From the NCBI GenBank assembly GCA_963806095.1, contig CAWDWV010000005.1, forward strand, positions 64,283 through 128,282: 64,000 bases of DNA, in the 5' to 3' direction. Shown piece by piece: positions 20,041-58,951 of the stretch (positions are counted from its first letter, which is position 1; each line of letters begins with the position of its first letter). The notes beneath the pieces are model-generated. The model had not been told where the DNA came from. It searched no databases and was given only the letters and a program-made list of their open reading frames with translations. A program made the position numbers and the translations under genes. Source of the DNA: Thermoanaerobaculia bacterium. Its GTDB lineage: Bacteria > Acidobacteriota > Thermoanaerobaculia > Multivoradales > JAIOJS01.

Positions 20041-21814
20041 GCCGGCGGCCGAGACGGCCCAAGGCGCGCAGGCATTGGGACGCGACGGCGACGTCGCCGC
20101 GGCGCCGGCAGCGCGCCTGGCGGCGCTCGTCGTGCCGTCGCTCGTGCTCGCCGCCGGGGTGCTGCTGCTGGCGCTGTTCGAGCGGCCGCAGCTACCGCGA
20201 TACCGGCAGCAGGCCTTCCGGCTGCTGTTCGCGCGCGACGAGCCGGCGGGTGCGGCGCTGCTGCTCGCGCTGCTGGCGATCGCGGTGGCGGCGGCGATGC
20301 TGGCGGCGAGGCCGCTGCGACGCTGGGCGGAGCTGGTGCCGCGGCGGTTGGCCGAACGGCGAGCCCTCGTCGCGCTCGCGCTCACGGCGGCGCTGCTCCT
20401 CGCCGCCGGTGCGGTGACCGTTTACCAGGCGCGCCCGCTGGCGATGGACGAGCACGCGCACTGGTTCCAGGCGCGCGCCTTCGCCGCCGGCGAGCTCACC
20501 GGGCGCCTGCCGCCCGACCTGCTGCCACGGCTGGTGCCGCCGCGCCTGCTCTTCCCGTTCTTCGCCACCGATGCGGCAACCGGCACCGTCGCGTCGCGCT
20601 ACTGGCCGGGGTTCGCGCTGCTGCTGGTGCCGTTTACCTGGCTGCGGGCGCCCTGGCTGCTCGACCCGCTGCTCGGCGGCGCGGCGCTGCTGCTGCTCGC
20701 CACACTGGCGCGACGGTGGACGGGCGAAGCGGCGGCGGCGGGCTGGGCGGTGCTGCTCGCTCTCGCCTCGCCGGCGTTCACCGTCAACGCGCTGTCGTTC
20801 TACCCGCTCACCGCGCACCTCGCCCTCAACCTGGCGTGGATGGCGCTGCTGGTGGAAGGACGCGCCGAGAGTGGCGATCCGCGGGCGACGGCGACGAAGT
20901 CGACGTTGACGCTCACCGCGCAGCCGCGACGGCTGCTCGCCGCCGGCGCCGTCGGCGCGCTGGCGCTGGTGCTCCACAACCCGGTGCCGCACGCGGTGTT
21001 CGCCGTTCCCTGGCTCGCGGCGCTGCTGCGCCGCCGCGGCCGCCGCGCCGTCGCCTTCCTCGCGCTCGGCTACCTGCCGCTCGTCCTGCTGCTCGGCGTC
21101 GGCTGGCTGCCCTTCCGCGGTCCGCTCGCGAGCGGGGCCGCGGCGGGCGACGGCCTGGCGCCGCGTGTCCTCGACTTCCTCGCCCACGTCTTCACCCTTC
21201 CCGCGCCGCCGCTGCTCTACGCGCGCCTGCTCGCGCTCGGCGAGCTCGTCACCTGGGCGGCGCCGTTCCTGCCCGTGCTCGCCGTGCTCGGCTGGCGCGC
21301 CGCCCGCCGCGGCTCGCCGCTGCGCCTGCTCGCCGGCTCGGCGCTGGCGACGCTGCTGCTCTACTGCTTCATCCCCTTCGACCAGGGGCACGGCTGGGGC
21401 TACCGCTACTTCCACGCCGCCTGGTCGGCGCTGCCGCTGCTCGGCGCCGCGGCGCTGGTCGACCCGCGCGCCGCACGCTGGCGCGGCCCGGTGCTCGCCG
21501 CCGCGCTGCTCGCCATCCCCGCCGCCAGCGCCTTGCGCGCCCAACAAGTGCGCTCGTTCATCGTCGAGCAGCGCGCGCAGCTGCCGCCGCTGCCGCCGGC
21601 GTCACCAGGCGAGCGGCGCCTGTGCTTCGTCTCGCTCCAGGGCGGCGCCTACCGCGTCGACCTGCTGCAGAACGACCCTTTCCTGCGCGACCCGGTGACC
21701 TACCTCAGCAGCCACGGCTTCGAGCAGGACGCGGCGCTGGTCGCCCGCCGCTTCCCGGCGGCGACCCTCGCGTCGCGCGACTCCAACGGCAGCGTCTGGC
21801 TGCTGCCTAACTGA
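20030..21814 (+). CDS. GT-C-fold membrane glycosyltransferase-like protein (ArnT/PMT_2-like)
   Basis: The start overlaps the GT2 stop by 11 nt. It has >10 predicted TM helices and a first-loop acidic motif, LAMDEHAHWFQARAF (the DE motif typical of GT-C enzymes). The family call is an inference. Confidence 0.65.
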   Translation: MAAEPAAETAQGAQALGRDGDVAAAPAARLAALVVPSLVLAAGVLLLALFERPQLPRYRQQAFRLLFARDEPAGAALLLALLAIAVAAAMLAARPLRRWAELVPRRLAERRALVALALTAALLLAAGAVTVYQARPLAMDEHAHWFQARAFAAGELTGRLPPDLLPRLVPPRLLFPFFATDAATGTVASRYWPGFALLLVPFTWLRAPWLLDPLLGGAALLLLATLARRWTGEAAAAGWAVLLALASPAFTVNALSFYPLTAHLALNLAWMALLVEGRAESGDPRATATKSTLTLTAQPRRLLAAGAVGALALVLHNPVPHAVFAVPWLAALLRRRGRRAVAFLALGYLPLVLLLGVGWLPFRGPLASGAAAGDGLAPRVLDFLAHVFTLPAPPLLYARLLALGELVTWAAPFLPVLAVLGWRAARRGSPLRLLAGSALATLLLYCFIPFDQGHGWGYRYFHAAWSALPLLGAAALVDPRAARWRGPVLAAALLAIPAASALRAQQVRSFIVEQRAQLPPLPPASPGERRLCFVSLQGGAYRVDLLQNDPFLRDPVTYLSSHGFEQDAALVARRFPAATLASRDSNGSVWLLPN

Positions 21815-24800
21815 TGGGCTTGCGCAGCAGCACGCGGCCCATCATGCACTCGCCCAGCTCGCGGTAGCTCTCCCACTGCTCGTCGGTGAGGAACTGGTCG
21901 GCCGTCGGGTCGTTGGGGAAGGCCGGGTTGACCTCGGCGTAGCAGCGCACCTCGAGCGGCACGCCCGGCGGCACCGCGGCCTTGAGCAGCAGCAGCCAGC
22001 TCGGCCGCCGCCGCGTGCCCGAGGTGTAGGTGACGCGCGCTAGCGCCGCCGCGTACGGCCCGTTGCGCCGGATCTCCTGCCAGGGGCCGATGGCCTCGGG
22101 GTCGAGCCAGTCGCGCACCAGCGGCGGCACCACGATGCCGTGGTCCTCGAAGGCGTCCCACCCAGTCTTGCCCGCGGCGCGGCCGGGGGCCGGGTCGAGC
22201 CAGCGGCAGTGGGCGCCGAAGTCGGTCTCCGCCAAGCGGATCAGCGTCGAGAGGTCCTGGAACTGATACTTGGCGTCCTGCAGCGCGTCGATGGCGATCA
22301 TGAACGGCAGCCGGCGGCGGATCAGCTCGTACAGGCCGGTGCCTTCGAAGTGGCCGCCGTCGGAGAGGTACCAGAAGCGCTGCGACGGGCCGCCGTAGTA
22401 GGCCCGCCACTCGTCGAGCAGCATGCGCTGGGTGCGGAAGATGATGCTCGGCGCCTGGATCAGCCGCCGCCAGATGCCGGGCGGGTAGCGCCCCGGCCGC
22501 TGGCCGGCGCGGATGTGGGTGTCCCACCAGTAGCCGAGCCGCACGTTGAGCAGCCCCATCAGCAGCGACAGCGACAGCTTGGTGTTGCGCCCCGAGCCGG
22601 TGCTGAAGGCGGCGCCGGAGGTGGCGATCCACTGCGAGAGGCGCAGCGGCTCGACCTCGGCGGTGTCGAAGCCGCGCTTCTTGAGGACGTGGAAGGCGTT
22701 GGGGTCGTTGTTGGGGACGACCGCCTCGACGACGCTCTCGCCGGAAGCCACGCTCGCCGCCGAGCGGTCCCACAGCGCGGTGAAGCGGCGGCCGACGCTG
22801 ATCCCCTCCGGCCCGAGGGCCATCTGCAGCCCCTTGTCGCTCTTGAGGTGGCGGCCGGAGGCGGCGTCCGCCGTCTCGTTGACGCAGACGCCGACCAGGT
22901 GCAGCGGGCCGCCCTTGAGCTCGGGGTGGTAGGCCTCGAACTCGATGTCGTCGTCGGCGTCGGGCACCGACACTTCGGTGGGCGTCCCCTTGCCGTGCGG
23001 GTAGATGCGCTGCGGGTTGCTGGCGCCGAGGAAGGTGCGGGCGAGGCGGGCCGCGTAGGCCGACTGCAGCGACGAGAGGTTGAGGAAGCCGACGTCGCGG
23101 CCGAGCACCACCGAGACGGCGAAGGCGAGCCCGATGAGCCACCACCCGACGGTGGTGCTGGAGTCGAAGCTCCAGTGCACCAGCACGTCGAGGGCGAAGA
23201 GCAGGAAGCCGAGCACGCCGAGGGCGATGGCGAGGAGGAGCAGGTTCGAGATGCCGCCGCTGGGCGCCGCCGCTCCCGCCGGGGTCTTCGGCTTGGTGAG
23301 CTTGGTGACGGTGTCGCGGAAGAACGGCAGGACCCCCATCAGAGCGCCCGCCAGGCTGACGATCATCGGCCGCATCGTGTCGTCGGCGGTGGCGCGCGCC
23401 AGGGTGTCGAGGACCACCCACAACGTCGTGGCGACGAACACCAGCACGGCGCCGCCGGCGAGGTAGGTGAGCCGGGCGCGCAGGATGACCCCCTGCGTGC
23501 GGGGGTCGGTGCCCGGCTTCATGTCGAGGCCCGCCAGCAGCTCCCACACCCAGGCGAGCAGCAGGATGACGAGGCCGACGGCGCCGAGCAGCCGCAGGCC
23601 GGGGATCCCCAACGCCACCACGGCGCCGGCGAGCAGCACCACCCAGAGCAGCAGCGCGAACACCGCGTACGGGGGCCCGCCCTTCTTGCGCGGCGCCAGC
23701 CAGTAGGCGTAGAAGATCGGCAGCGCGAAGGCGAGGGCGACCGCCACCGGCAGCCACCACCAGGGCGACAGCTGCAGGCCGAGGACGGTGACCGGGTTGC
23801 CGGGGATTCCCGGCAGCCCGCCGAGCGGCGCGGCGAGCAGGCGCAGCAGGCCGAAGATGAAGACGAAGAAGGTGGCGATGACGAGCTGCACCGCCAGCAG
23901 GTTGCGCCAGATGGTGCCGAGGTTGGTCTTGAGGTCGGACAGCCCCTCGCCGGCAAGGTAGTTGACGTGCGTGCGCAGCCACTCGATCTCGGCCGAGTTG
24001 GAGTTGCGCAGCACGCGCTCGACGTAGGCCGGCTTGTCGGCGACGTCGGGAGCGACGCGGGTGAAGAGCCGGCCGAGGAAGCTGCCGATGTAGCCGCCGC
24101 CCGAGACGCTGGACATGAAGTCGACGGCGCGCAGGCGCCCCTTGGCGGCGAGCGCCTGCAGCGCGCCCAGGCAGTAGGTGGCGCTACGGATGCCGCCGCC
24201 GGAGAGCGCCAGCCCCACGGCGTCCTTGGGCAGCCGCCGCGGGTAGGGCGCCGGGCCGGGCGTGCCGGCCATGCCGGTGGCGGCGCCGTAGCCGCTGACC
24301 GAGCCCTCGGCGGTGGCAACACTCGAGCCCGGCGCGGCCGCGGTGGCGGCGCCTGTCGGATAGCCGCTCCTCCGCTGCTTGTCCTCCCAGCCGCCGCTGA
24401 TCAGCGCCGCCTGCCGGCGCTGCTGCACGGCGTGGGCTTCCTTCGCTTCCAGCCGGTCCGGGTATGTCGCGGAGTCGGCGATGATCGTCTCCGCCGCCTT
24501 CTCCGCCGCCATGAAGATGGGGGTGACGATGAAGTAGCCCGGGATCTCCGGGAAGATGGAGGCGTCGACGATGCGCAGGCCTTCGACGCCGTGCACGCGG
24601 AAGCGGCTGTCGAGCACGGCGCCGCGGTCCTTGAGCTCCGCCGCCGGGAACGGCCGCCAGGGATCGGACCCCATGCGGCAGGTGCCGTTGGCGTGGTGCC
24701 CCCAGGCCGAGTGGTGGATCCACTTGGCGACCTGCGAGTTGGTGACGTCCTTGCCCGGCTGCACCTCGCGGTCCATGAGCGGGATCGACGCGTTGATCTT

Positions 24801-26708
24801 GCGCACCAGCTCGACGGCGGCCTCGACCGCCGCGAGGTCCTTCTGCGCACCCGGCGTGTAGGCGCCGGTCAACGGGTCGCGGGCGAAGGAGTCGGTGTCG
24901 ATGTCGAGCTGCGCGAACGGCGAGGCGGAGCGCAGCTTCACCGTGCCGCTGTTGTGGGTGTAGGCCTTGAGGATCACCCAGGTCCAGATGTTGCGGTGGT
25001 CGATGGGCTCGCCGGGCGGCACCTGCTCGGGGTAGAGCAGCTGCGACGACCAGCCCCAGTAGTAGCCGCGGAAGGCCGCCGGGACGCCGAAGACGAAGAG
25101 GTCGGCCTCCGGCCCGTCGTGGTGGCCCGAGCGCGCCAGGAAGGCGATGGCGCCGCCGTTGGTGGCGTAGAGGCCGCCGCCGTCCTCGAGCCACTGCGTC
25201 AGGGCCGGGTCGGGCTGCTCACCCGGCTTGGGCGGCACCAGGGTGTCGCCGTCGAGGGTCTTGAACGGCTTCTTGGTCTGGCTGACGACGCCGACCTCGT
25301 AGCGGTCCTGCAGGTTCTTGCCGACGCCGGCGAGGTCGATGCCGTCCGCGACCTTCTTGCCGTCACGGTCGCGCAGGCCGTCGATGCCGTGCTTGGCGAG
25401 CTCGGCCTGGTCGCCGATGCCGGAGAGCATCAGCAGCTGCGGCGAGTTGTAGGTGCCGCCGGAGAGGATCACCTCGCTGCGCGCGAAGAGCTGCCGGCGT
25501 GGCGCGTCGTTGGACGCCGCTTCGGACTTGGAGAGCGGGCTCGGCTGGTAGAGGTGCTTGCCCTCGGCCACCTCGACGCCGATGGCGCGCGGCACCGCGG
25601 GCCGCCGCTTCTCGCCGGCGGCCGTGCCGTCGTCTTCGTCCTCGACCCCGGCCTCGAAGATCACCCGCGTCGCCAGCGCGCAGGTGACGATGGTGAGGCG
25701 GTCGGGGTAGTCGGTGGCGTTCTTGAGCAGCCACTCGCGCAGCCCGACGCGGCGCGTGCCGTCGGTGCCGATGGGGATGAGCTTGAGGTTGACGTCCGGC
25801 GCCGCCGGCCAGTCGCGGCGGTAGTTGGGGTCGAGGAAGCGCACCACGGAGAGCGTCACGATCGACTTGAGGAAGGCCTTGAAGCCCCCACCCTTGACCA
25901 GCAGCCACAAGACGGCGCGGGCCAGGAGGCTGATGAAGACCCAGTCGCTCTTGGCGATGGTGACGATCAGCAGCGGCGAGATGAAGCTCGTCTTCTGCCA
26001 GCCGGCTGTCCCGTGGCCGCCGTTGTCGAGCTGCTCGCTGGGGTTGAGGAAGGCGACGAGGGCGCGCCACCACGCCGCGATCTTGCCCAGCGCCTTGCGG
26101 AAGGCCGATTTGTAGGCCGAGTAGTAGAGCACCTGCTCGATCACCGCGAAGTAGCCCTGCATCGCCGACGGCTGCCAGCTGGCATCGCCGGTGAGCTCGG
26201 CGACGCGCTGCCAGTCGAGGTCGTTGGGCTTGGCGATGATCATCGCGTGGTGGTTCGTGCAGCCGCCGATGCCCGAAGCGCGCGGGTAGAAGATGCCGCC
26301 TTTGCCGCCGGTGGGCCAGTTGGGGTCCGGATTCGCCGACGGATCGTGCTCCGGGTTGTACTTGGGGTCCTTCTTCTGCTCCTCAGTGTCGGCGAAGTGC
26401 CGCACCGAGAAGCTCCAGCTCATCGGGTCGTCCTCGGAGGCGGCGCCGTAGTAGACGGGCACCTCGTAGACCTGGCGCAGCTTGGCCGCCGACTCCGCCG
26501 GCGCGTCGACGGTGCCGCACGGCCGGGCCTCGGTGGCGACGTCGGCGCCGGCCTCGAGCACCAGCACGCGCTTGCCGGATCGTGCGAGCCGCGCCGCCAG
26601 CACGCCGCCGCCGGCCCCCGAGCCGACGACGATGTAGTCGAACGGCGTCGTCTCGGGGTCCGCCGCCAGGGTGAGCAGGTCGGTGGTCGAGGCGTTCGCG
26701 GCGGCCAT
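21807..26708 (-). CDS. 1,633-aa fusion: GMC-family FAD oxidoreductase (N-terminal ~760 aa) + patatin-like lipase split by a polytopic membrane block
   Basis: ATG 26708 lies 2 nt after the upstream stop. The GMC part has DYIVVGSGAGGGVLAARLARSGKRVLVLEAG, YPRASGIGGCTNHHAMI, VILSGGTYNSPQLLMLSGIG and AWGHHANGTCRMG...LRIVDASIFPEIPG. The patatin part has GLALSGGGIRSA (Gly832 on), nucleophile elbow SVSGGGY (Ser869 = nt 24102..24104) and LSDGGHFEGTGLYE (Asp1450 = nt 22359..22361). About 8-10 hydrophobic helices lie between nt ~23090 and ~23920. No in-frame stop separates the two halves. The upstream 2.7 kb of track ORF 21807..29420 is off-frame read-through. Confidence 0.8.
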   Translation of the reverse strand: MAAANASTTDLLTLAADPETTPFDYIVVGSGAGGGVLAARLARSGKRVLVLEAGADVATEARPCGTVDAPAESAAKLRQVYEVPVYYGAASEDDPMSWSFSVRHFADTEEQKKDPKYNPEHDPSANPDPNWPTGGKGGIFYPRASGIGGCTNHHAMIIAKPNDLDWQRVAELTGDASWQPSAMQGYFAVIEQVLYYSAYKSAFRKALGKIAAWWRALVAFLNPSEQLDNGGHGTAGWQKTSFISPLLIVTIAKSDWVFISLLARAVLWLLVKGGGFKAFLKSIVTLSVVRFLDPNYRRDWPAAPDVNLKLIPIGTDGTRRVGLREWLLKNATDYPDRLTIVTCALATRVIFEAGVEDEDDGTAAGEKRRPAVPRAIGVEVAEGKHLYQPSPLSKSEAASNDAPRRQLFARSEVILSGGTYNSPQLLMLSGIGDQAELAKHGIDGLRDRDGKKVADGIDLAGVGKNLQDRYEVGVVSQTKKPFKTLDGDTLVPPKPGEQPDPALTQWLEDGGGLYATNGGAIAFLARSGHHDGPEADLFVFGVPAAFRGYYWGWSSQLLYPEQVPPGEPIDHRNIWTWVILKAYTHNSGTVKLRSASPFAQLDIDTDSFARDPLTGAYTPGAQKDLAAVEAAVELVRKINASIPLMDREVQPGKDVTNSQVAKWIHHSAWGHHANGTCRMGSDPWRPFPAAELKDRGAVLDSRFRVHGVEGLRIVDASIFPEIPGYFIVTPIFMAAEKAAETIIADSATYPDRLEAKEAHAVQQRRQAALISGGWEDKQRRSGYPTGAATAAAPGSSVATAEGSVSGYGAATGMAGTPGPAPYPRRLPKDAVGLALSGGGIRSATYCLGALQALAAKGRLRAVDFMSSVSGGGYIGSFLGRLFTRVAPDVADKPAYVERVLRNSNSAEIEWLRTHVNYLAGEGLSDLKTNLGTIWRNLLAVQLVIATFFVFIFGLLRLLAAPLGGLPGIPGNPVTVLGLQLSPWWWLPVAVALAFALPIFYAYWLAPRKKGGPPYAVFALLLWVVLLAGAVVALGIPGLRLLGAVGLVILLLAWVWELLAGLDMKPGTDPRTQGVILRARLTYLAGGAVLVFVATTLWVVLDTLARATADDTMRPMIVSLAGALMGVLPFFRDTVTKLTKPKTPAGAAAPSGGISNLLLLAIALGVLGFLLFALDVLVHWSFDSSTTVGWWLIGLAFAVSVVLGRDVGFLNLSSLQSAYAARLARTFLGASNPQRIYPHGKGTPTEVSVPDADDDIEFEAYHPELKGGPLHLVGVCVNETADAASGRHLKSDKGLQMALGPEGISVGRRFTALWDRSAASVASGESVVEAVVPNNDPNAFHVLKKRGFDTAEVEPLRLSQWIATSGAAFSTGSGRNTKLSLSLLMGLLNVRLGYWWDTHIRAGQRPGRYPPGIWRRLIQAPSIIFRTQRMLLDEWRAYYGGPSQRFWYLSDGGHFEGTGLYELIRRRLPFMIAIDALQDAKYQFQDLSTLIRLAETDFGAHCRWLDPAPGRAAGKTGWDAFEDHGIVVPPLVRDWLDPEAIGPWQEIRRNGPYAAALARVTYTSGTRRRPSWLLLLKAAVPPGVPLEVRCYAEVNPAFPNDPTADQFLTDEQWESYRELGECMMGRVLLRKPIS

Positions 26709-26710
26709 CG

Positions 26711-29700
26711 CTAGAGCGTCCTCAGGAACGCCTTGAGCTGCAGCTTCTCCTGGTCGCTGAGCCCCTCGGCGAACCAGTGCCCGCGGTCGAGCACGTAGTC
26801 GGGACACTTGCTCGCCTTGAGCATCGGCAGCGCCGCTTCCGCCTCGAACGCCTGCAGCGCCTTGGCGCCCTGGAAGTCGTGCTTGTGGATCGTCAGCAGG
26901 CCGCGGGCGAGGCCGGAGACGGCGCCGACGAGGTCGCCGACCGGCGCCTCGGGGTTGATGCTCCACAGCAGGTTGACCGTCATCCCCTCGGGGAAGGGCG
27001 CCAGCAGGGCGGCGGTGTTGATGCCGACGAGCTTGCCGCCGACGAAGAGGTGGAGCACGACGCCGACGACGAGCACGAGCACGGCGAGCACGTAGAGGAA
27101 CGACCTCCACGTCCACGGCGCCTTCTTGCTCAGCCACAGCCAGATGCCGAGCGCGACGAGGAGCAGCGCGATGGGCAGCAGCCAGAGCGTCCAGTAGATG
27201 GTGTAGACGCGGGTGACGACGAGGACGATGGCGATGAGCAGCGCCAGCAGCAGGTAGACGAAGCCGGCGGCGCGTGGACCGGCGAAGATGGCCAGCAGCA
27301 CCAGCCCCACGGCGAGGAGGATCCACAGCCAGAAGGTGAGGAAGCCGGTCCAGAACGAGCCCAGGATCCCCACCAGGATGGGCTTGATGAAGCCGGGGGC
27401 GAAGATGAGGCTGGTGTTGGCGGTGGCGCGGTAGATGAAGCCGGGGTCCCTGCCGGCGAGGTCGGGGCGCCGGTAGCGCAGGTCGCCGTCGCCGTGGCGC
27501 GGCGAGGCGACCCGCCGCTTCGACTTCCACAGCAGCTTGTCGATGGAGTCGTCGTAGGAGGCCAGGCGGCCGGCCACGGACGGGTCGTTGTTGAACAGGC
27601 CCAGCGTGTTGCCGTGCAGCAGCGGCGAAGTCGCCCAGATGCTGACCAGCGACGCCGGCCGGTAGTAGCCGGGGCCGCCCGCGGGCGGGTAGTAGAGGTC
27701 GTTGTTGCCCCACGAGTCGACGGGCTTGTTCGACCAGGGGTTGTAGAAGTGCACCGCCCCGACGGCAGGCAGCTCCTTGTAGGTGTCGGACGAGAAGTTG
27801 TCCCACACCTGGCCCTTCATGGCGTTGGTGCCCACCGAACGGGCGGAGTTGGTGCCCACCAGGGTGATGGGGATGCGGATGTCGGTGGACATGTAGTTGT
27901 TGGCCAGGAAGTCCTCGCCGCCGGGGTTGCTGGCGGCGAAGGCCTCGATGCGGCGGCGGTAGTCGGCGAAGGCCGGGCCCTTGCGGAACGCCTCCCAGTC
28001 GGCGTAGGTCTGCGGCAGCGTGTACATCGCCGGGGCGCCGGGGGCGGGCGGTCCCTTCGCCGCCCACTTGGCGTCGAAGCTCAGGGCGAACCCTTGCGGC
28101 TGCTTGCTGGAGTGGCAGATGGCGCAGTTCTGCAGGAAGACCTTGCGCCCTTCGGCGGCGAGCGGCGCCTCGCGGGCGATGACCTCGGCGCCTCCCGGCG
28201 CGTAGGCGAGCTTCATCGAGGTGGTGATCGGCACCTGCTGCGCCGCGCTGTCGTGGCTGAAGAACGCGTAGAGGTAGGGGATGCGGTACTCGTCGCCGGT
28301 GTTCCAGAACACCGACCAGTCGATCATGTCCTGCACGTTGAACGGCCGTTGCGGCTTGAAGCCGATGATGGCGTTGTGGGCGCGGAACCACTCTTCGGGG
28401 TAGGTGCCGATGTTGGCGTAGACGCGCGAGAGGGCGCCGAAGACGCCGACGCTGTCGGCGCCGTCGAGCAGCACGCGCGGCGTGATCCGCGGGTTGCTCT
28501 TCTGCGTCTGGCCCGGGACGGTGGGGACCACGGGGATGCGCCGGTTCCAGTCGCTCTGCTGCTCGGGCGGGTTGAGGTTGGCGCGGTGCAGCCGCGCCGG
28601 CACCTCCCAGATGTTGGTGATGGTGTTCGAGTTGTTGATCTGGTCGGTCGACACCAGCGAGGTGTCGATGGTGCCCGGCTGCTGGCTGTTGAGGAACTGG
28701 AAGAGGGCGTTGTTCTCGTGGGTGAGGTTGGCGAAGGCCTTGCTCGCCCGCCAGTACTGGTTGCCGATGGTGCTCGACAGGTTGGCCCACTCCGGCCGCT
28801 CGGGGTCGGCAGGAGGGTTCTGCGCGTGGAAGGCGATGTGGCAGAAACCGCACGACATGCTGACGCGGAACGGGCGGATGAGGTCGGGATCGGAGGCGAG
28901 GCGCACGTCCTGGTAGTAGGCGTCGCCGTTGAGCATCACCTGGCCCTGCCAGTAGCGGCGGGCGGTGGCGGCGTCCTTGGTGTTGCCGAAGAAGTCGGGG
29001 TTGGGCATCAGCCGCAGGCCGAGGATGCCGCTGGGGTAGCCGTAGACGGTGTAGTCGAGCCCGTCCTTGGGCAGCCGCGCCAGCACCGACTCGTAGAGCT
29101 TGGGGTCGCCGGGGGTGAAGAGCGGCTTCGGCGGGTGGTGGGGATCGGGCGGCGGGCCCTGCTGGAGCTGGCCCGTCTTGGGGTCGATGTCGGTGGGCGG
29201 CTGCTTGAGGATGATCTTGTCGCCGTCGGCGACGTCGATGTACAGACCGAGGATGCGGTTGTCCGGGTTGGTCTGCGGTCTCATGCCCGGCTGGTTGATC
29301 AGCCCGGCGGTCCTGAAGCGGCTGTAGCGCTGGCGCGAGTCGAGGAGGATGAGGAAGTCGGTGAGGCCGTAGCCTTCCTCCTGGAGCCAGCCCCAGAAGG
29401 CCTCGTTGCCCTCGCCCCACAGGATCCAGGTGTTCTGGCCGCGGATGCCGTTGCGGCCGCAGCCGAAGCAGTCGGGTTTCCCGTCGTCGATCTGGCCGGC
29501 GGAATTCGCCCAGTTGAACGGCCCCAGCGTGCCGTCCGCGCCGACCACTTGGTCGACCTCGCTGAAGACGTTGCGCGTCTCGGCGGGGAAGCAGTACTTG
29601 GTGCGCGGGGTCCTCGGCGTGCCGCGCAAGGTGTACGCGGTGGGCGGATTGGTCCCCGGTTTCGCCAGCGCCTCGTCCGGCGGCGCGCCGGGGTCCTGCT

Positions 29701-29875
29701 CGTTCCAGCCGTCACGCACGTCCGGCACGTGGCTCGCCGCCGGGTAGGGGTTTTCCTCGGCCTTGGCGTCCGCGCAGCCCAGCGCCACCAGGCACAGGGC
29801 GACGCACCCCAGCAGTCCGAGGATGGCTCGATTGCGGCGGGTCGACAGCAGTCCACTCCGGCTCGGCTCTCTCAT
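26711..29875 (-). CDS. Secreted di-haem c-type cytochrome (CCP/MauG/RoxA-superfamily-like) with an inserted block of ~4 TM helices
   Basis: ATG 29875 is preceded by GAGGGA. Signal/lipobox-like AILGLLGCVALCLVALGCADAK. Two CxxCH motifs are present: SMSCGFCHIAF (nt 28838..28852) and NCAICHSSK (nt 28112..28126). A hydrophobic block spans nt 27035..27397. The C-terminal tail DRGHWFAEGLSDQEKLQLKAFLRTL resembles the conserved C-terminus of di-haem peroxidase-type cytochromes. Confidence 0.75.
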   Translation of the reverse strand: MREPSRSGLLSTRRNRAILGLLGCVALCLVALGCADAKAEENPYPAASHVPDVRDGWNEQDPGAPPDEALAKPGTNPPTAYTLRGTPRTPRTKYCFPAETRNVFSEVDQVVGADGTLGPFNWANSAGQIDDGKPDCFGCGRNGIRGQNTWILWGEGNEAFWGWLQEEGYGLTDFLILLDSRQRYSRFRTAGLINQPGMRPQTNPDNRILGLYIDVADGDKIILKQPPTDIDPKTGQLQQGPPPDPHHPPKPLFTPGDPKLYESVLARLPKDGLDYTVYGYPSGILGLRLMPNPDFFGNTKDAATARRYWQGQVMLNGDAYYQDVRLASDPDLIRPFRVSMSCGFCHIAFHAQNPPADPERPEWANLSSTIGNQYWRASKAFANLTHENNALFQFLNSQQPGTIDTSLVSTDQINNSNTITNIWEVPARLHRANLNPPEQQSDWNRRIPVVPTVPGQTQKSNPRITPRVLLDGADSVGVFGALSRVYANIGTYPEEWFRAHNAIIGFKPQRPFNVQDMIDWSVFWNTGDEYRIPYLYAFFSHDSAAQQVPITTSMKLAYAPGGAEVIAREAPLAAEGRKVFLQNCAICHSSKQPQGFALSFDAKWAAKGPPAPGAPAMYTLPQTYADWEAFRKGPAFADYRRRIEAFAASNPGGEDFLANNYMSTDIRIPITLVGTNSARSVGTNAMKGQVWDNFSSDTYKELPAVGAVHFYNPWSNKPVDSWGNNDLYYPPAGGPGYYRPASLVSIWATSPLLHGNTLGLFNNDPSVAGRLASYDDSIDKLLWKSKRRVASPRHGDGDLRYRRPDLAGRDPGFIYRATANTSLIFAPGFIKPILVGILGSFWTGFLTFWLWILLAVGLVLLAIFAGPRAAGFVYLLLALLIAIVLVVTRVYTIYWTLWLLPIALLLVALGIWLWLSKKAPWTWRSFLYVLAVLVLVVGVVLHLFVGGKLVGINTAALLAPFPEGMTVNLLWSINPEAPVGDLVGAVSGLARGLLTIHKHDFQGAKALQAFEAEAALPMLKASKCPDYVLDRGHWFAEGLSDQEKLQLKAFLRTL

Positions 29876-30024: not shown

Positions 30025-31152
30025 TCACCGCAGCAGTCCGCCGAGGAAGGGCTCGCCCAGATCGCGGAACCACCGCGCCACCTCCTCGGGCGGCGCCAGC
30101 CGGCGGGACTGGACGCGCCGCCGCTTGCGCCACATGAGAGGGGCGCCACGAAGCGCGTCGCGCCAGCCGCGCAGCATCACCGCCGCGAGGCGCGAAGCAG
30201 GGATGCGCGCGCCGAACTTGCTCGCCGGCCCCCGGCCCGCGAGCAGCCCGATGAGCAGCACCAACGGCCGCAACGTTGTGAGGATCAGAGCGCGCACAGC
30301 GTACCAGCGTGGATAGTTCTTGACTACGTTCCAGATCGTGTTGCGACTGGTGTAGTAGCCGAGCAGCTCGGAGTACTGGCCGGCGGTGCCGCCGCGCTGG
30401 TGCCAGACGACGGCGGCCGGCGCCTGCACGCAGCTCCAGCCGCGCAGGCGCGCCCGCCAGCCGAGGTCGAGCTCCTCGCAGTAGAGGCGGAAGTCCTCGT
30501 CGAACCACTCGCCGTCGGGGGCGACGTCCTCGAGCAGCTCGCGGCGGTAGAAGGCCGCGGCGCCGTAGGGGCAGAAGGTCTCCCGGGACTCGGCGGCGGC
30601 GTCGGCCGGGAGCCCGGCGTCCTCGAGCTTGCCTAAGCCGTCGACGGTGATGCGCTGCCCTGTTCCGTCGAGGACCTGGCCGTCGAGGACCTGTCCATCG
30701 AGAATCGTGGCGCCGGCGCCGAGGACGACGCGCGCCGCCACCATGCCGACGCGGGGCGGCTCGGCGACGTCATCGGGCTCGGCGTCGGCGGCTGCGGACT
30801 GCAGTAGGACCCGCTCCGCCGCGGCGGCGAGCGCAGCGAGCGCGCCCGGCGCCACTCGCGTGTCGTTGTTGAGCACCAGCACGCCCTCGGCGCCAAGCGC
30901 GAGCGCCCGCCGGATGCCGACGTTGTAGGCGTGCGAGAAGCCGGTGTTGTGCGGCAGCGCCAGCACTTCGGCGGCGGCGAAAGCCATCGGCGGTTGGCAG
31001 AGGGCCTCCCGCGCCGCTTCCACCGAGCCGTCCGTCGAGCCGTTGTCGACCACCACCACCAGCGGCTCCTCGCCGCCGTCGCGGAGGCTCTGCAGGCACT
31101 CGCGCAGCAGCTCCCGGCGGTCGTAGTTGGCGACCACCACGGCGACCCTCAT
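30025..31152 (-). CDS. GT2 glycosyltransferase (soluble, rhamnosyl/galactosyl-transferase-like)
   Basis: MRVAVVVANYDRRELL, VVVDNGSTDGS, HNTGFSHAYNVG, FDEDFRLYCEELDLGWR. Contains the tandem 15-bp duplication at 30665..30694 (QVLDGQVLDG). Confidence 0.8.
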   Translation of the reverse strand: MRVAVVVANYDRRELLRECLQSLRDGGEEPLVVVVDNGSTDGSVEAAREALCQPPMAFAAAEVLALPHNTGFSHAYNVGIRRALALGAEGVLVLNNDTRVAPGALAALAAAAERVLLQSAAADAEPDDVAEPPRVGMVAARVVLGAGATILDGQVLDGQVLDGTGQRITVDGLGKLEDAGLPADAAAESRETFCPYGAAAFYRRELLEDVAPDGEWFDEDFRLYCEELDLGWRARLRGWSCVQAPAAVVWHQRGGTAGQYSELLGYYTSRNTIWNVVKNYPRWYAVRALILTTLRPLVLLIGLLAGRGPASKFGARIPASRLAAVMLRGWRDALRGAPLMWRKRRRVQSRRLAPPEEVARWFRDLGEPFLGGLLR

Positions 31153-31721
31153 GCGGTCGGGGCCCGGCTGCCGCGGCCGCGCGCCGGCGACGGCGGCGCC
31201 GGCTCGAGCTCGAAGTACACCTCGTTGGCGGGCAGCATCCAGCAGAGGAACCGCTCGTAGAGCAGCGGCACGCGGTTGATCGCCCAGGTGAGCAGCCGGC
31301 CGTTGACGCGACGCCGCGTGTTGTTGATCCAGTAGAAGCAGATGCGGCGTTCGACGATGCGGAAGCGCACCGGCGTGTAGAAGTTGAAGTCGCCCTCGTC
31401 GGCGAGGTAGTCGAAGCTGTGGTAGCCGAAGAAGCGGCGGTGCGTGGGGTCGGTGTAGGAGCCGAAGAACGACAGGTGGGGCACGAAGAGGCGCAGGCGG
31501 CCGCCGGGGGCGCAGACGCGGTGCAACTCCCCCATCAACGGCAGGAAGCGGTCGACGTGCTCGAGCACGTGCGAGGAGTAGACCTCGGCGAAGGCGCCGT
31601 CGCGGAAGGGCAGCGGCGACTCGAGGTCGAGCACGACGTCGACGCCGGAGAGCGGCACGCGGTCGGCGTTGACGTAGCCGGCCCGCACGTCGCGGCCGCA
31701 GCCGAGGTTGATGCGGCGCAT
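31149..31721 (-). CDS. Class I SAM-dependent methyltransferase (Methyltransf_11/23-like)
   Basis: MRRINLGCGRDVRAGYVNAD (motif I), LPFRDGAFAEVYSSHVLEH, APGGRLRLFVP. The stop overlaps the GT2 start (ATGA). Confidence 0.75.
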   Translation of the reverse strand: MRRINLGCGRDVRAGYVNADRVPLSGVDVVLDLESPLPFRDGAFAEVYSSHVLEHVDRFLPLMGELHRVCAPGGRLRLFVPHLSFFGSYTDPTHRRFFGYHSFDYLADEGDFNFYTPVRFRIVERRICFYWINNTRRRVNGRLLTWAINRVPLLYERFLCWMLPANEVYFELEPAPPSPARGRGSRAPTA

Positions 31722-31830
31722 CGAGATGGCGCGATGATATGACGCGCTGCGAGGCCCATCCCTGTCGTCGAGCTCCCCACCCGCGACGGACCACGCCGGC
31801 CGGCGGCGCCTGCGCGCACTGCTGCCGTGG

Positions 31831-32721
31831 GTGCTCGGCATCGCCATCCTCGTCTGGCTGCTGCTGCGGGTGCCGCTCGGCGCCGTCGCGGCGGCGCTCG
31901 CCGGCGGGCGGTGGGGCGCGCTCACGGTCTACGTGGCGTTCGAGCTCGCCGTCCTCCTGCTCGTCGATGCCTGGGCGACGGTGGTGACGTTGCGCCAATG
32001 CGGCGGCTCGCCCCCCTTCCGCGACGTGCTCGCCATGCGCGGCGCCACCTACCTGCTCAACCTCGTCCACTTCGGCGCCGGCCAGGGGGCTTTCGGCTGG
32101 TACCTCGCGCGCGCCGGACGCGGGGCCTGGGGGGCGGGCGGCGCGCTGCTGCTGATGCTCGCTACGCAGGGGCTGGCCCTGGTGCTGGTGGTGGCCGGCG
32201 GGCTGTTGCTCGCGCCGCCGTGGCTCATGCGGCCGGCGCTGCCGCTCGCGGTGGCGGCGCTGGCGGGGATCGTCGCCTATCTCGTCGTGGTCGCCATCAG
32301 CCCGGCCTGGGCGCAGCGCATCGCGCTGCTGCGGCCGCTGCTCGTCGCCGGCCTGCGCGGCCACCTCGTCGCCGGCGCGGCGCGGGTGCCGCACATGGCG
32401 CTGCTCGTGCTTCTCAGCTGGGGCCTTTATCGCGTCTGGGGGATGCCGGTGCCGCTGCGCTTCGGGCTCGCCGTGTGGCCCATCCTGCTGCTGGTGAGCG
32501 CGCTGCCGATCACCCCGTCGGGGCTGGGCACCGTGCAAGCGATGCAGGTGTCGTTCTTCGCCGAGTGGGCGCCGGGAGCGGACCTCGCCAGCCGGCAGGC
32601 CGCGGTGCTCGCCTTGACGCTCGCCGCCTACGCGCTGGCTCTGCTGCTGCAGGCCGCCATCGGCGCCTTCGCGCTACGCGCGCTGCGCCGGAAGCTCGGC
32701 GCGCCGCTCGTCGGCTTGTAA
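31831..32721 (+). CDS. Flippase-like membrane protein (MprF/LPG-synthase TM-domain family, TIGR00374-like)
   Basis: 296 aa, ~8 TM helices. Family-typical motifs are LLNLVHFGAGQGAFGWYLAR and SALPITPSGLGTVQAM. It is divergent from the methyltransferase gene. The start is a GTG; the true start is uncertain. Confidence 0.65.
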   Translation: MLGIAILVWLLLRVPLGAVAAALAGGRWGALTVYVAFELAVLLLVDAWATVVTLRQCGGSPPFRDVLAMRGATYLLNLVHFGAGQGAFGWYLARAGRGAWGAGGALLLMLATQGLALVLVVAGGLLLAPPWLMRPALPLAVAALAGIVAYLVVVAISPAWAQRIALLRPLLVAGLRGHLVAGAARVPHMALLVLLSWGLYRVWGMPVPLRFGLAVWPILLLVSALPITPSGLGTVQAMQVSFFAEWAPGADLASRQAAVLALTLAAYALALLLQAAIGAFALRALRRKLGAPLVGL

Positions 32722-53091: not shown

Positions 53092-53943
53092 TCAGCCGCC
53101 GACCGTCAGCCAGGGGGTGGGCTCGAACTGCCCCGAGATCGTCAGCTCCGCCTTCGTCCGCAGGCGGGCCAGCTCCTCCCCCACCACCGCCGCCGCCAGG
53201 GCCGGCAGGTTGTTGGCCTGGGAGAGGTGGTAGAGCACGACGTGCCGGAGCCCCTCGTGGGCGAGCTCGGACAGCCCGTCGGCCGCGTCGGCGTTGGAGA
53301 GGTGGCCGTGCCGCCCCGCCACCCGCTGCTTGAGCGGCCAGGGGTAGGGGCCGTTGCGCAGCATTTCGAGGTCGTGGTTGGCCTCCAGCAACAGAGCGTG
53401 GACGCCGGCGAGGCGCGCCCAGGCGAGCCGGCTCCGGCAGCCGAGGTCGGCGACCAGCCCCACCCGGCCGCCGCCGCCGGGGTCCTCCACCACCACTCCC
53501 ACCGGCTCGCGGGCGTCGTGGGGCACGGCGAACAGCTCGACGACGAAGCCGGCCGCCTCGAAGGGGACGCCCGACCGGCAGGGGCGCACCAGCGACGCCA
53601 CCTCCGGCCGCAGGGTCATGCCGCTGACGGTGCCGGCGGTGGCGTAGATCGGCACCCGCCGCTTGCGGCAGAAGCGCTCGACGCCGCGCACGTGGTCGAG
53701 GTGCTCGTGGGTGAGGACGACGCCGTGCAGGTCCTCGGGCTCGAGGCCGACCTTGGCCAGCCGGCGCTTGATCTCGCGCCCCGAGAAGCCGGCGTCGACG
53801 AGCAGCCGGCGGCCGCCGGCCTCGATCACCACCGCGTTGCCCTGGCTGCCCGAGCCCAGCACGACGAGGCGTAGGGGCCGCCGGGGCACCACCGGCTCGC
53901 GAACGGGGCCGTCGAGCTCGGGGAAGAGCGAGGCTTGCTTCAC
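53092..53943 (-). CDS. MBL-fold metallo-hydrolase (YycJ/PhnP-like)
   Basis: LVVLGSGSQGNAVVIEAGGRRLLVDAGFS, VVLTHEHLDHVRG (HxHxDH), HDAREPVG, GHLSN. Confidence 0.8.
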   Translation of the reverse strand: MKQASLFPELDGPVREPVVPRRPLRLVVLGSGSQGNAVVIEAGGRRLLVDAGFSGREIKRRLAKVGLEPEDLHGVVLTHEHLDHVRGVERFCRKRRVPIYATAGTVSGMTLRPEVASLVRPCRSGVPFEAAGFVVELFAVPHDAREPVGVVVEDPGGGGRVGLVADLGCRSRLAWARLAGVHALLLEANHDLEMLRNGPYPWPLKQRVAGRHGHLSNADAADGLSELAHEGLRHVVLYHLSQANNLPALAAAVVGEELARLRTKAELTISGQFEPTPWLTVGG

Positions 53944-53973
53944 TTGCCCCTCAATCTATCCCGCGCCGCGCGG

Positions 53974-54735
53974 TCAAAACTCGTAGGTTCTCCCCTGCTC
54001 GAGGAAGGCGATGTCGGGGTTGCCCAGCGCCTTGACCTCGGCGCAGATCCGGCCGATGCAGGGCGGCTTCAGGTGGTGGAGCAGGATGGGCACCTTGCGC
54101 TCGAGCTTCTGCAGCTCGCGCGCGAGCGTCTGCGGCGTCAGGTGGAGCGAGACGTCGGCGATCTCCTGCAGCGCGTTGTCGAAGGAGACCTCGATGCACA
54201 GCGCCTTCAAGTCCGGGGTCTGGTTGGCCACCTCCCAGAAGCGCGTCGTCGGCCCGGTGTCGCTCGACCACAGCACGGCGCTGCGCCCCTGGCGCAGCAG
54301 GAAGCCGTGGGTGGGCACCAGGTGGTCGACGGGGATGGGGGTGAAGCTGATGCCGTCGAGCTCGAGCGGCACCTCGTCGGCGAGCTCCTCGAACTGCACC
54401 GCCGGCAGCAGGTGGTTGGGCAGCCGCGTGAAGTCGGGCCAGGTGGCGTTGTTGAAGAGGTACTTGCGGATGGCGTAGATGGTGGCCGGCGAGCTGTGGA
54501 TGCGGATGGCGCCGTTGCTCTTGCCGTAGACGTTCTCGATGAAGAAGGGGAGCGAGTTGGTGTGGTCCATGTGCGAGTGCGACAGCACGATGGAGTGCAC
54601 CTTGACCTGCTCGTCCACCGCCAGCGCCTGCGCCAGCGAGCCGGCGTCGAGCGCCACCCGGTCGTTGATCAACAGGCTGGTCATGCGGCAGTCGATACTC
54701 TCGCCGCCGAAGCCGCCGAGGACCTGTATCTTCAT
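53974..54735 (-). CDS. Class II 3',5'-cyclic-nucleotide phosphodiesterase (MBL-fold, CpdP-like)
   Basis: MKIQVLGGFGGES...TSLLINDRVALDAGS, IVLSHSHMDH (class II signature HxHxDH), PVDHLVPTHGFLL, LWSSDTG, LLHHLKP. Confidence 0.8.
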   Translation of the reverse strand: MKIQVLGGFGGESIDCRMTSLLINDRVALDAGSLAQALAVDEQVKVHSIVLSHSHMDHTNSLPFFIENVYGKSNGAIRIHSSPATIYAIRKYLFNNATWPDFTRLPNHLLPAVQFEELADEVPLELDGISFTPIPVDHLVPTHGFLLRQGRSAVLWSSDTGPTTRFWEVANQTPDLKALCIEVSFDNALQEIADVSLHLTPQTLARELQKLERKVPILLHHLKPPCIGRICAEVKALGNPDIAFLEQGRTYEF

Positions 54736-54749
54736 GGGACTAGAGGATC

Positions 54750-58915: not shown

Positions 58916-58921
58916 GGCTCT

Positions 58922-58951
58922 CCCGTGCATGGTTTTCCCGTGCATGGTTTT
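58922..58951. repeat. Perfect 15-bp tandem duplication (cccgtgcatggtttt x2) at the 5' end of the Omp85-PD40 gene
   Basis: Read directly from the sequence. Each unit carries an ATG on the minus strand (MHGKT/MHGRA). Confidence 0.7.

Follow-up and report, generated by a model that had tools for sequence, protein, structure and literature searches.

RoxA of Steroidobacter cummioxidans 35Y cleaves the double bonds of polyisoprene, an unsaturated, lipid-like polymer, in an O2-dependent reaction and does not act as a peroxidase (PMC6797691). Two proteins of Pseudomonas aeruginosa that are related to RoxA, PA2077 and PA2078, oxygenate and isomerise oleate (PMC4496055). Here, we describe a two-gene locus in which a distant, membrane-inserted relative of these dihaem enzymes is encoded directly upstream of a flavoenzyme fused to a predicted transmembrane lipase. 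The locus lies on the minus strand of a 64,000-nucleotide stretch of a Thermoanaerobaculia genome (Acidobacteriota; GenBank assembly GCA_963806095.1, contig CAWDWV010000005.1, positions 64,283 to 128,282), hereafter called the window. We refer to its two open reading frames (ORFs) as ORF A, the dihaem protein, and ORF B, the flavoenzyme–lipase fusion (Table 1). To our knowledge, the characterised relatives of RoxA are limited to secreted rubber oxygenases and Pseudomonas oleate-diol synthases.

ORF A shares with RoxA and RoxB (PDB 4b2n) two CxxCH haem sites, an extracytoplasmic location that we predict for ORF A from its topology, and two motifs. One is WATAPY(F/L)HN, found after the second haem (WATAPYFHNG in RoxA). 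The other, ...GH-F...L(S/T)D.E+..L..(F/Y)(L/I)(K/R)TL, ends the protein and includes the equivalent of RoxA His641. RoxA is a secreted, soluble protein of ~70 kDa, whereas ORF A has 1,054 residues, with a four-helix transmembrane insertion and ~560 N-terminal residues that have no recognisable relative. ORF A therefore carries the signature motifs of RoxA and RoxB but neither their secreted, soluble form nor full-length similarity at the equivalog level.

PA2077 and PA2078, described as the oleate-diol synthase FadCcp, resemble ORF A in being RoxA-related dihaem proteins and offer a lipid-directed precedent. Bacterial dihaem cytochrome c peroxidases (CCP/MauG) resemble it in the second-haem domain: residues 570–755 of ORF A match positions 293–446 of the NCBIfam model NF040606 (‘di-heme cytochrome c peroxidase’). 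ORF A differs from them in being membrane-integral, in having an unrecognisable N-terminal haem domain and in scoring far under the cut-off of the model. Unlike ORF A, PA2077 and PA2078 are not known to be integral to the membrane or to work with a GMC or lipase partner.

The lipase half of ORF B has the GGGxR, Ser nucleophile and Asp-Gly-Gly elements of cPLA2 (GIVA and GIVD), ExoU, VipD and PlpD, and like cPLA2 it has a large insertion between Ser and Asp at the cap position. In ORF B, however, this insertion is an eight-helix transmembrane bundle, the C2 domain is absent and the lipase is fused to a flavoenzyme. Its nucleophile elbow is S-x-S-G-G (SVSGG) in place of the G-x-S-x-G that is canonical for patatin/cPLA2-type lipases. 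The flavoenzyme half shares the flavin adenine dinucleotide (FAD) fold, both Pfam domains and the HxxGTC histidine with GMC enzymes such as BetA, aryl-alcohol oxidase and fatty acid photodecarboxylase. It departs from classical members in an insertion of ~200 residues, in a Tyr-Phe pair that takes the place of their second catalytic His/Asn and in its C-terminal lipase fusion.

Fructose, gluconate and glucose dehydrogenase complexes also have a flavoprotein gene that adjoins a haem c gene. Those complexes have all their subunits in the periplasm, and their cytochrome is a small carrier with several haems. In the A-B pair, by contrast, the two proteins are predicted to face opposite sides of the membrane, the flavoprotein is not exported and ORF A looks like an enzyme.

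The author of the original prediction for this DNA knew of no described system with this composition. We likewise found no paper on the combination of GMC enzyme, lipase and dihaem protein, or on the neighbouring families, in the searchable full text, a body that does not extend to subscription-only literature. One candidate, PMC12542777, was rejected as a description of the system; it mentions an unrelated patatin gene. Databases name the homologues ‘hypothetical protein’, ‘cytochrome c’ or ‘GMC oxidoreductase’. The parts thus come from known superfamilies, and as far as we could determine, the assembly, the transmembrane-capped lipase, the transmembrane-inserted RoxA-type enzyme and the Tyr-Phe GMC site are undescribed and widespread.

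A conserved two-gene module

ORF A and ORF B are genuine genes at the coordinates given in Table 1. Re-reading the sequence gave the same coordinates, strand and two-nucleotide TAG-ATG gap as the original prediction. The window has a G+C content of ~72%, and long ORFs therefore occur in several frames. GC by codon position is 0.62/0.47/0.97 in ORF A and 0.67/0.49/0.98 in ORF B, which indicates that both are coding in these frames, and the thousands of homologues of the two ORFs likewise identify them as real genes. The sequence GAGGGA precedes the ORF A start codon (ATG at 29875) by 5 nucleotides, and this start is supported by a 1,056-residue homologue with 92% identity. Because a convergent plus-strand ORF downstream of ORF B ends at 21814, the two genes form a two-gene unit. 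The closest relatives occur in metagenome bins of Thermoanaerobaculia, with 70–88% identity for ORF A and 66–78% for ORF B.

A scan of one genome per species identified 79 loci with an ORF A homologue. Carriers belong to the Alpha-, Beta- and Gammaproteobacteria, Verrucomicrobiota, Planctomycetota, Myxococcota and Acidobacteriota. Fifty-nine of these loci have at least 5.2 kb downstream of ORF A and could be tested for its partner. Both a GMC protein and a transmembrane lipase are encoded in 57/59, and in 55/59 they lie directly downstream on the same strand. The pairing proposed in the original prediction is thus a conserved functional unit and not a chance adjacency. Across loci, the identity of ORF A homologues to the window protein rises and falls with that of the GMC domain (r = 0.93) and with that of the lipase (r = 0.86). 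The distance from the ORF A stop codon to the FAD motif of ORF B has a median of 94 nucleotides (45 loci) and is 72 in the window, which leaves little or no intergenic space at any locus.

The GMC enzyme and lipase are encoded as one ORF in 54 of 64 loci and as adjacent or overlapping separate genes in the remaining 10. Split genes are found mostly in Planctomycetota, in Opitutaceae and in one Acidobacteriota bin. With 54 fused loci, 10 split but adjacent ones and no stop codon in the linker, the predicted fusion proves to be both genuine and old. The same arrangement is present in complete genomes of cultured strains, namely Roseateles sp. SL47, Sinorhizobium meliloti and Mesorhizobium onobrychidis (plasmid pOM4), where the genes are annotated as ‘hypothetical protein’ and ‘GMC oxidoreductase’. 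In our favoured reading, the two proteins form a self-contained inner-membrane module that is conserved vertically and horizontally.

Other genes accompany the module in some genomes. A 416-residue DUF4331-like protein with a C-terminal transmembrane segment is encoded directly downstream of the GMC–lipase gene in 16 loci (L002:19572-20822), and a 357-residue protein with no family match also lies downstream of that gene, in 15 loci (L002:21545-22618). Further loci with these neighbours are L037, L044, L046, L050, L051, L053, L058, L062, L065, L067, L068, L071 and L083. Neither protein is encoded in the window. In Verrucomicrobiota, Planctomycetota, Myxococcota and some rhizobia, the module may include both proteins as additional parts. 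By eye, an RxxHxxG motif had made the 357-residue protein (L002:21545-22618) look catalase-like, an assignment that we dropped when PDB, Pfam and NCBIfam gave it no support. DUF4331 and TPR proteins follow the module in some Burkholderiales and Verrucomicrobiota (L001:17973-20877, L008, L009, L011 and L017; L002:17636-19572 and L084:16896-18896). In rhizobia, HupE/UreJ and DUF4198 genes, annotated as metal transport genes, are convergent to the module. Finally, at L004:4378-14908, in a metagenomic genome, two ORF A relatives flank split GMC and lipase genes; the upstream relative is a 1,128-residue form with the transmembrane bundle and the downstream one a 714-residue form without it.

Table 1. 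Features of the ORF A–ORF B locus, in window coordinates.
Feature	Coordinates	Strand	Basis or remark
ORF A, 1,054 residues	26711..29875	minus	Membrane-anchored dihaem protein, predicted to face the periplasm; distant RoxA/CCP superfamily member
N-terminal hydrophobic signal/anchor helix (residues 14–39)	29759..29836	minus	Hydropathy scan; helix 13–33 in the model
Haem motif 1, CGFCH (C342, C345, H346)	28838..28852	minus	Invariant in 46 homologues
Haem motif 2, CAICH (C584, C587, H588)	28112..28126	minus	Invariant; opens the only CCP-like stretch recognised by a hidden Markov model (HMM)
CCP/RoxA signature GYYRPASLVSIWATSPLLHGNTL (residues 736–758, invariant H754)	27602..27670	minus	hhalign to RoxA 4b2n 500–521
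Amphipathic helix and four transmembrane helices (residues 827–945)	27041..27397	minus	Inserted into the RoxA-type fold
C-terminal motif CPDYVLDRGHWFAEGLSDQEKLQLKAFLRTL, invariant H1033	26714..26806	minus	Aligns end to end with the RoxA C-terminus
Gene junction TAG-cg-ATG	26706..26713	minus	Reads CTC TAG cg ATG GCC; two-nucleotide gap
ORF B, 1,633 residues	21807..26708	minus	GMC flavoenzyme fused to a predicted membrane-embedded cPLA2/patatin-like lipase
GMC domain (residues 1 to ~750)	24459..26708	minus	Pfam; insertion of ~200 residues relative to typical GMC enzymes
FAD-binding motif DYIVVGSGAGGG (GxGxxG fold)	26604..26639	minus	Conserved in at least 96% of 53 fused homologues
Hydrophobic segment in the GMC insertion (residues 245–275)	25884..25976	minus	Hydropathy scan
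WGHHANGTCRMG, with canonical GMC catalytic His H672 (HxxGTC motif)	24669..24704	minus	Aligned to PDB GMC enzymes
IPGYF (Tyr725-Phe726)	24531..24545	minus	Position of the second catalytic His/Asn in classical GMC enzymes
Ala/Gly/Pro-rich linker (residues 751–830)	24219..24458	minus	No stop codon; low predicted local distance difference test (pLDDT) score
GGGIR, lipase oxyanion-hole motif	24186..24200	minus	G837–R841 at least 96% conserved
MSSVSGG nucleophile elbow, Ser869	24096..24116	minus	Aligned with the ExoU and cPLA2 nucleophile
Eight-helix transmembrane bundle (residues 923–1235)	23004..23942	minus	Between catalytic Ser and Asp, at the cPLA2 cap position
LSDGGHF, catalytic Asp1450	22347..22367	minus	D-G-G invariant

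ORF A is a membrane-inserted relative of RoxA and CCP

ORF A has at least 1,964 homologues, which are 50–55% identical across phyla. The two CxxCH motifs reported in the original prediction are at the positions given there and are invariant in 46 homologues of 50–83% identity. About 190 further positions are also invariant in this set, a pattern typical of an enzyme. With its CxxCH motifs and N-terminal hydrophobic helix, ORF A has the makings of a c-type cytochrome, and haem attachment is predicted. The residues that precede its two N-terminal cysteines (LLGC and ALGC) are non-canonical for a lipobox.

Profile searches recognise little of the protein. Pfam returns weak generic cytochrome c matches alone, at the second CxxCH motif, and has no CCP_MauG (PF03150) match to ORF A. 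NF040606 matches 45 of 46 family members; its scores in the family are 20–50 bits, all under the cut-off, and never cover the first haem region. The relationship to RoxA was exposed through a RoxA-like neighbour protein from Rhizobium johnstonii, described below, that was aligned to RoxA (PDB 4b2n). At 736–758, the ORF A family profile aligns with residues 500–521 of RoxA (GYIAPPLYGAWATAPYFHNGSV; hhalign E 1.9e-5), and residues 1031–1054 of ORF A (RGHWFAEGLSDQEKLQLKAFLRTL) align with the 24 residues that end RoxA (GGHDFTQSLTDSERWALIEYIKTL; hhalign E 7.8e-5). This C-terminal segment contains RoxA His641, which we take to be the distal ligand of the second haem. By analogy, its equivalent in ORF A, H1033, is expected to ligate the second haem.

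The polytopic hydrophobic block noted in the original prediction resolves into four predicted transmembrane helices (840–864, 867–888, 895–918 and 922–945 in the AlphaFold model), placed between the two RoxA motifs. The model is confident overall (pLDDT 80.9; predicted template modelling score (pTM) 0.85). Foldseek found no relative of it in the PDB, 4b2n included; the best match has an E value of 1.2 and covers the transmembrane helices alone. A search of the ORF A family profile against PDB sequences likewise matched only the haem motifs of cbb3 CcoP and did not match 4b2n. AlphaFold does not model haem, and the low-confidence loops of the model are the expected haem contacts, including the CCP motif at 735–757, which may explain the Foldseek result.

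The superfamily to which ORF A belongs is large, with 2,086 clusters at 50% identity (E ≤ 1e-3), or 528 at E ≤ 1e-30. Many clusters consist of 650–900-residue forms without the transmembrane block. Such shorter relatives weakly match the C-terminal parts of the RoxA, RoxB and RoxC models. For ORF A itself the NCBIfam RoxA/B/C matches are marginal or absent, and they are marginal in a few family members. ORF A belongs distantly to the RoxA/CCP dihaem superfamily, its fold being interrupted by a membrane bundle. Its RoxA/CCP-type motifs and NF040606 matches favour an enzyme, and ‘enzyme of the RoxA/CCP/MauG superfamily’ describes it better than ‘electron-carrier cytochrome’.

ORF B joins a GMC flavoenzyme to a predicted transmembrane lipase

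Both Pfam GMC domains match the first half of ORF B above their gathering scores (GMC_oxred_C, 75.5 bits versus a cut-off of 24.6; GMC_oxred_N, 39.9 versus 23). Together with the FAD motif, these matches bear out the predicted GMC assignment. The best PDB match of the domain is a fatty-acid-binding GMC enzyme, fatty acid photodecarboxylase (1.9e-26), followed by aryl-alcohol oxidase, pyranose dehydrogenase and choline oxidase. ORF B missed all NCBIfam equivalog cut-offs for GMC enzymes by a wide margin, including those for the choline dehydrogenase BetA (PRK02106, 155 bits versus 605; TIGR01810, 120 versus 732). Within the GMC insertion, P245 and D255 are at least 96% conserved among the fused homologues. 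The hydrophobic segment that they belong to (residues 245–275) is a possible membrane-contact loop.

Around the first catalytic position, W669, G670, H671 and H672 are invariant in the 53 fused homologues. The second catalytic His/Asn, located six residues before the xMxAEK helix, had been suspected to be substituted. When ORF B is aligned by hand with glucose oxidase and choline oxidase, Phe726 occupies the position. F726 is invariant in the fused homologues and Y725 is present in 52 of the 53. From these alignments, the Tyr-Phe substitution appears to be a hallmark of the family and not a local mutation.

The call of a patatin-like lipase in the second half of ORF B stands in part. It has no HMM match on the window protein itself; Pfam Patatin (PF01734) does not match even at E ≤ 10, and PDB sequence searches return ExoU and VipD alone, marginally (E 0.04–0.1). 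At the level of the family and of structure the call is upheld. Pfam Patatin matches 35 of 47 full-length homologues (E ≤ 0.01; best 7e-9), and the family profile matches cPLA2 delta and VipD. The AlphaFold model of the lipase (pLDDT 87.2; pTM 0.88) has cPLA2 delta (E 8e-4) and cPLA2 alpha (E 2.9e-3) as its top Foldseek matches in the PDB, with a probability of 1.00, followed by PlpD, VipD, ExoU and patatin. S869 is at least 96% conserved among homologues. So is D1101, which lies inside a transmembrane helix according to the AlphaFold helix coordinates. On the strength of the model, the second half of ORF B is a predicted Ser-Asp lipase of the cPLA2/patatin type whose cap is replaced by an eight-helix transmembrane bundle.

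A transmembrane-capped lipase of the same family occurs by itself in Opitutus terrae (L003:10001-12664), between housekeeping genes and with neither a GMC nor a dihaem partner gene. The lipase is therefore an autonomous unit that was recruited into the module.

Topology and electron transfer

ORF B has no signal peptide and no Sec/Tat motif, and ~920 of its residues precede the first transmembrane helix. The number of helices is even (eight), and the Lys/Arg-rich loops PRKKGG and KLTKPKTP lie on the catalytic side. Both soluble domains of ORF B are therefore placed in the cytoplasm, as in the original prediction. In ORF A, the Arg/Lys-rich loops GPRAAG and SKKAPWTWR agree with a chain that runs out-in-out-in-out. 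The even number of helices, the positive loops and a C-terminus that returns to the periplasmic haem indicate an N-out/C-out topology, in keeping with the predicted periplasm-facing dihaem domain.

By this topology logic, the catalytic domains of ORF A and ORF B are predicted to lie on opposite faces of the inner membrane. The module had been called ‘envelope-spanning’, a term that is too strong, since all of its parts are anchored in the inner membrane. We detected no conserved histidine in the transmembrane helices of ORF A (46 homologues) or ORF B (53 fused homologues). With FAD in the cytoplasm, the haems in the periplasm and no transmembrane histidine, direct flavin-to-haem transfer is unlikely, and ORF A is an unlikely electron acceptor for the flavoenzyme. 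The earlier analogy to FAD dehydrogenases with cytochrome c acceptors fails for these reasons: the domains face opposite sides, and no conserved transmembrane histidine could hold a relay cofactor.

A related gene cluster on a rhizobial plasmid

We identified a paralogous cluster of seven co-directional genes on plasmid pRL11 of R. johnstonii 3841 (RL_RS32270..RL_RS32240; L086:3137-15489) that is also present on related rhizobial plasmids. The cluster encodes an OYE-type NADH:flavin oxidoreductase, a RoxA-like protein (PF21419, 2.9e-17), a 143-residue protein with four transmembrane helices, another RoxA-like protein (3.6e-12), a protein resembling ORF A (31% identity, with an N-terminal anchor only and the same C-terminal motif as ORF A), a 597-residue GMC protein with WGHHxxGTC and IPGYF motifs as in ORF B, and a 962-residue transmembrane patatin. 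All of these genes carry hypothetical or generic annotations.

The cluster resembles the A-B locus in encoding an A-like dihaem protein, an IPGYF-type GMC enzyme and a transmembrane patatin in the same order. It differs in that these are separate genes and in its additional genes for two RoxA-like proteins, a four-helix protein and an OYE-type reductase. The transmembrane domain of the pRL11 lipase is N-terminal, unlike that of ORF B. We considered the pRL11 patatin as an orthologue of the ORF B lipase; only the catalytic motif region aligns, so the similarity is one of analogous architecture. Likewise, the 143-residue protein was rejected as a homologue of the ORF A transmembrane bundle (hhalign probability 5%). 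The recurring theme of the two gene sets is clear: membrane-anchored RoxA-type haem enzymes occur with an IPGYF-type GMC enzyme and a transmembrane lipase.

Proposed function and alternatives

With slightly more confidence than doubt, we favour the general statement that the A-B module acts on a membrane lipid, through oxygenation, hydrolysis and oxidation, and not as a dehydrogenase with its cytochrome. The order of the steps is graded lower. The original prediction's machine for remodelling or degrading a membrane lipid is in this sense reasonable, and it is something that we infer and do not observe. The fusion of a lipase to an alcohol-oxidising flavoenzyme suggests that hydrolysis releases or unmasks the group that the flavoenzyme oxidises. 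The pRL11 gene set also has a lipid-oxidation flavour, which we count as support for a lipid module.

In the proposed scheme, ORF A would be exported and would carry two c-type haems in a large periplasmic domain, with the four transmembrane helices holding the enzyme at the membrane surface. ORF B would remain cytoplasmic, and with a transmembrane bundle in place of a soluble cap, its active site would open into the bilayer. Using O2 or peroxide, ORF A could first act on an unsaturated chain, acyl or isoprenoid, in the periplasmic leaflet, either oxygenating or cleaving it. The modified lipid would then reach the transmembrane bundle of ORF B, where its ester bond would be hydrolysed, and the GMC flavoenzyme (FAD, His672) would oxidise the hydroxyl or aldehyde group so exposed. 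The outcome would be either removal of a damaged lipid or formation of an oxylipin-like product. In this scheme, we infer the substrate and the sequence of events, and likewise that ORF A is loaded with haem and is in physical contact with ORF B. A tighter version, which we regard as a tentative possibility, has the two proteins joined through their transmembrane bundles, so that one lipid is oxygenated, crossed over the bilayer, de-esterified and oxidised within one assembly that clears peroxidised lipid or makes oxylipin-type signals. The pair would then be the founding example of a lipid-oxidation machine shared by several bacterial phyla, with the RoxA-type oxygenase on the outer face of the inner membrane and the lipase–flavoenzyme on its inner face.

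Several observations weigh against action on a membrane lipid. The lipid function is deduced from sequence and models, which assign no substrate. The catalytic sites lie on opposite faces, and handing a substrate from one to the other would need lipid flipping, of which there is no sign here. Transmembrane lipases also stand alone, as in Opitutus terrae, and so do not strictly need ORF A. The substituted GMC active site might have an unusual or even a non-redox role. ORF A itself scores 20.6 bits against the curated 150 of NF040606 and has no CCP_MauG Pfam match, and its confident model has no fold match in the PDB, RoxA included. Its first ~560 residues, which include the presumed catalytic haem, have no recognised relative, so that the protein may be an oxygenase or a peroxidase. 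The window neighbours (glycosyltransferases, a kinase and MacB) give no functional clue.

The main rival is oxidised-lipid repair, which we think rather unlikely. Here ORF A would be a quinol- or cytochrome c-driven membrane peroxidase that works at the outer face and reduces lipid hydroperoxides or H2O2 there. Damaged chains would be excised by the lipase, and the flavoenzyme would oxidise the hydroxy-fatty acid, possibly passing electrons to the quinone pool. The only HMM-detectable likeness of ORF A is to a ‘di-heme cytochrome c peroxidase’, and ORF A carries the CCP signature motif. The CCP family includes membrane-anchored quinol peroxidases, and in eukaryotes oxidised acyl chains are excised by PLA2-type enzymes. 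The module is found in Gram-negative soil and freshwater lineages, which we take to be largely aerobic. However, ORF A lacks a CCP_MauG match, its transmembrane helices have no conserved polar or quinol-site residues in 46 homologues, the operon encodes no electron donor and RoxA, the clearest motif relative, has no peroxidase activity (PMC6797691).

A respiratory-type dehydrogenase, in which the GMC enzyme oxidises an alcohol and passes electrons to the dihaem cytochrome c as in fructose, gluconate and glucose dehydrogenases, is improbable. Genes for a flavoprotein and a haem c protein are indeed adjacent and tightly packed, and GMC dehydrogenases often use non-oxygen acceptors. The lack of a Sec/Tat signal in ORF B nevertheless separates a cytoplasmic FAD from periplasmic c-type haems, with no conserved transmembrane histidine in either protein for a relay haem. 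ORF A, at more than 1,000 residues and with enzyme-like invariant positions throughout, is not a small carrier, and the fused lipase has no place in such a scheme.

Less probable still is a role in conflict or defence, with the transmembrane lipase as a membrane-destroying effector, as in the patatin-like phospholipases of CBASS and further anti-phage systems, and its partners as sensors or regulators. Patatin-like lipases are common defence effectors, and some copies of the module are on rhizobial plasmids. PADLOC models, however, match neither protein apart from a trivial 13-bit FAD-motif match, the window has no defence-island context, and a sensor or nucleotide-signalling domain is lacking. 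The identity of ORF A across phyla and its hundreds of invariant residues are also atypical of fast-evolving defence genes. An artefact, whether a fusion created by a sequencing or assembly frameshift or a chance adjacency, is refuted for practical purposes: the linker is low in complexity, rich in G+C (so that indel errors are plausible) and longer than in most homologues, but the in-frame fusion recurs in 54 independent genomes, among them the complete genomes of cultured strains, and the adjacency holds in 55/59 loci.

Neighbouring genes in the window

The genes around the locus encode family-2 glycosyltransferases, a methyltransferase, an LPG_synthase_TM protein, a Ser/Thr kinase and a MacB-type permease. 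None of these neighbour genes recurs beside ORF A or ORF B homologues in other genomes. The region upstream of ORF A holds several overlapping, conflicting ORFs: an 837-residue ORF with a family-2 glycosyltransferase domain (30025..32538, minus strand), a 258-residue methyltransferase-like ORF in a different frame (31149..31925, minus strand) and an LPG_synthase_TM-like ORF that scores under the Pfam cut-off (31831..32721, plus strand). A 1,524-residue ORF antisense to ORF B (22140..26714, plus strand) failed the GC3/GC2 gene filter and is taken to be an antisense shadow of ORF B, of a kind common at 72% G+C.

Farther away, a 988-residue ORF (55979..58945, minus strand) was considered as a paralogue of ORF A because of its similar size and rejected, since its translation is unrelated. 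It encodes an exported protein in which we discern, by eye, a TolB-like beta-propeller and a C-terminal region like an outer-membrane beta-barrel. Next to it (53092..55901, minus strand) are two successive ORFs of 283 and 253 residues that by eye resemble metallo-beta-lactamase-fold proteins, followed by a 383-residue ORF that by eye is GAF/HD-GYP-like.

Implications

How bacteria oxidise and turn over lipids, their own or those of their surroundings, is poorly charted. The 2,086 clusters around ORF A form a large unexplored branch of the RoxA superfamily, and many of its closest members are linked to a lipase and a flavoenzyme. The locus also presents two unusual architectures, a cPLA2-type lipase with a predicted membrane-domain cap and a dihaem enzyme with a transmembrane bundle before its haem-ligating C-terminus.

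Carriers are soil, rhizosphere and freshwater bacteria that include culturable Paraburkholderia, Rhizobium, Labrys, Roseateles and Verrucomicrobium, and the function is therefore directly testable. The pRL11 cluster provides a tractable model for the wider superfamily in a well-studied rhizobium. If the module does make or remove oxidised lipids, it would bear on membrane homeostasis under oxidative stress, on plant–microbe signalling and possibly on enzymes for polymer and lipid oxidation.

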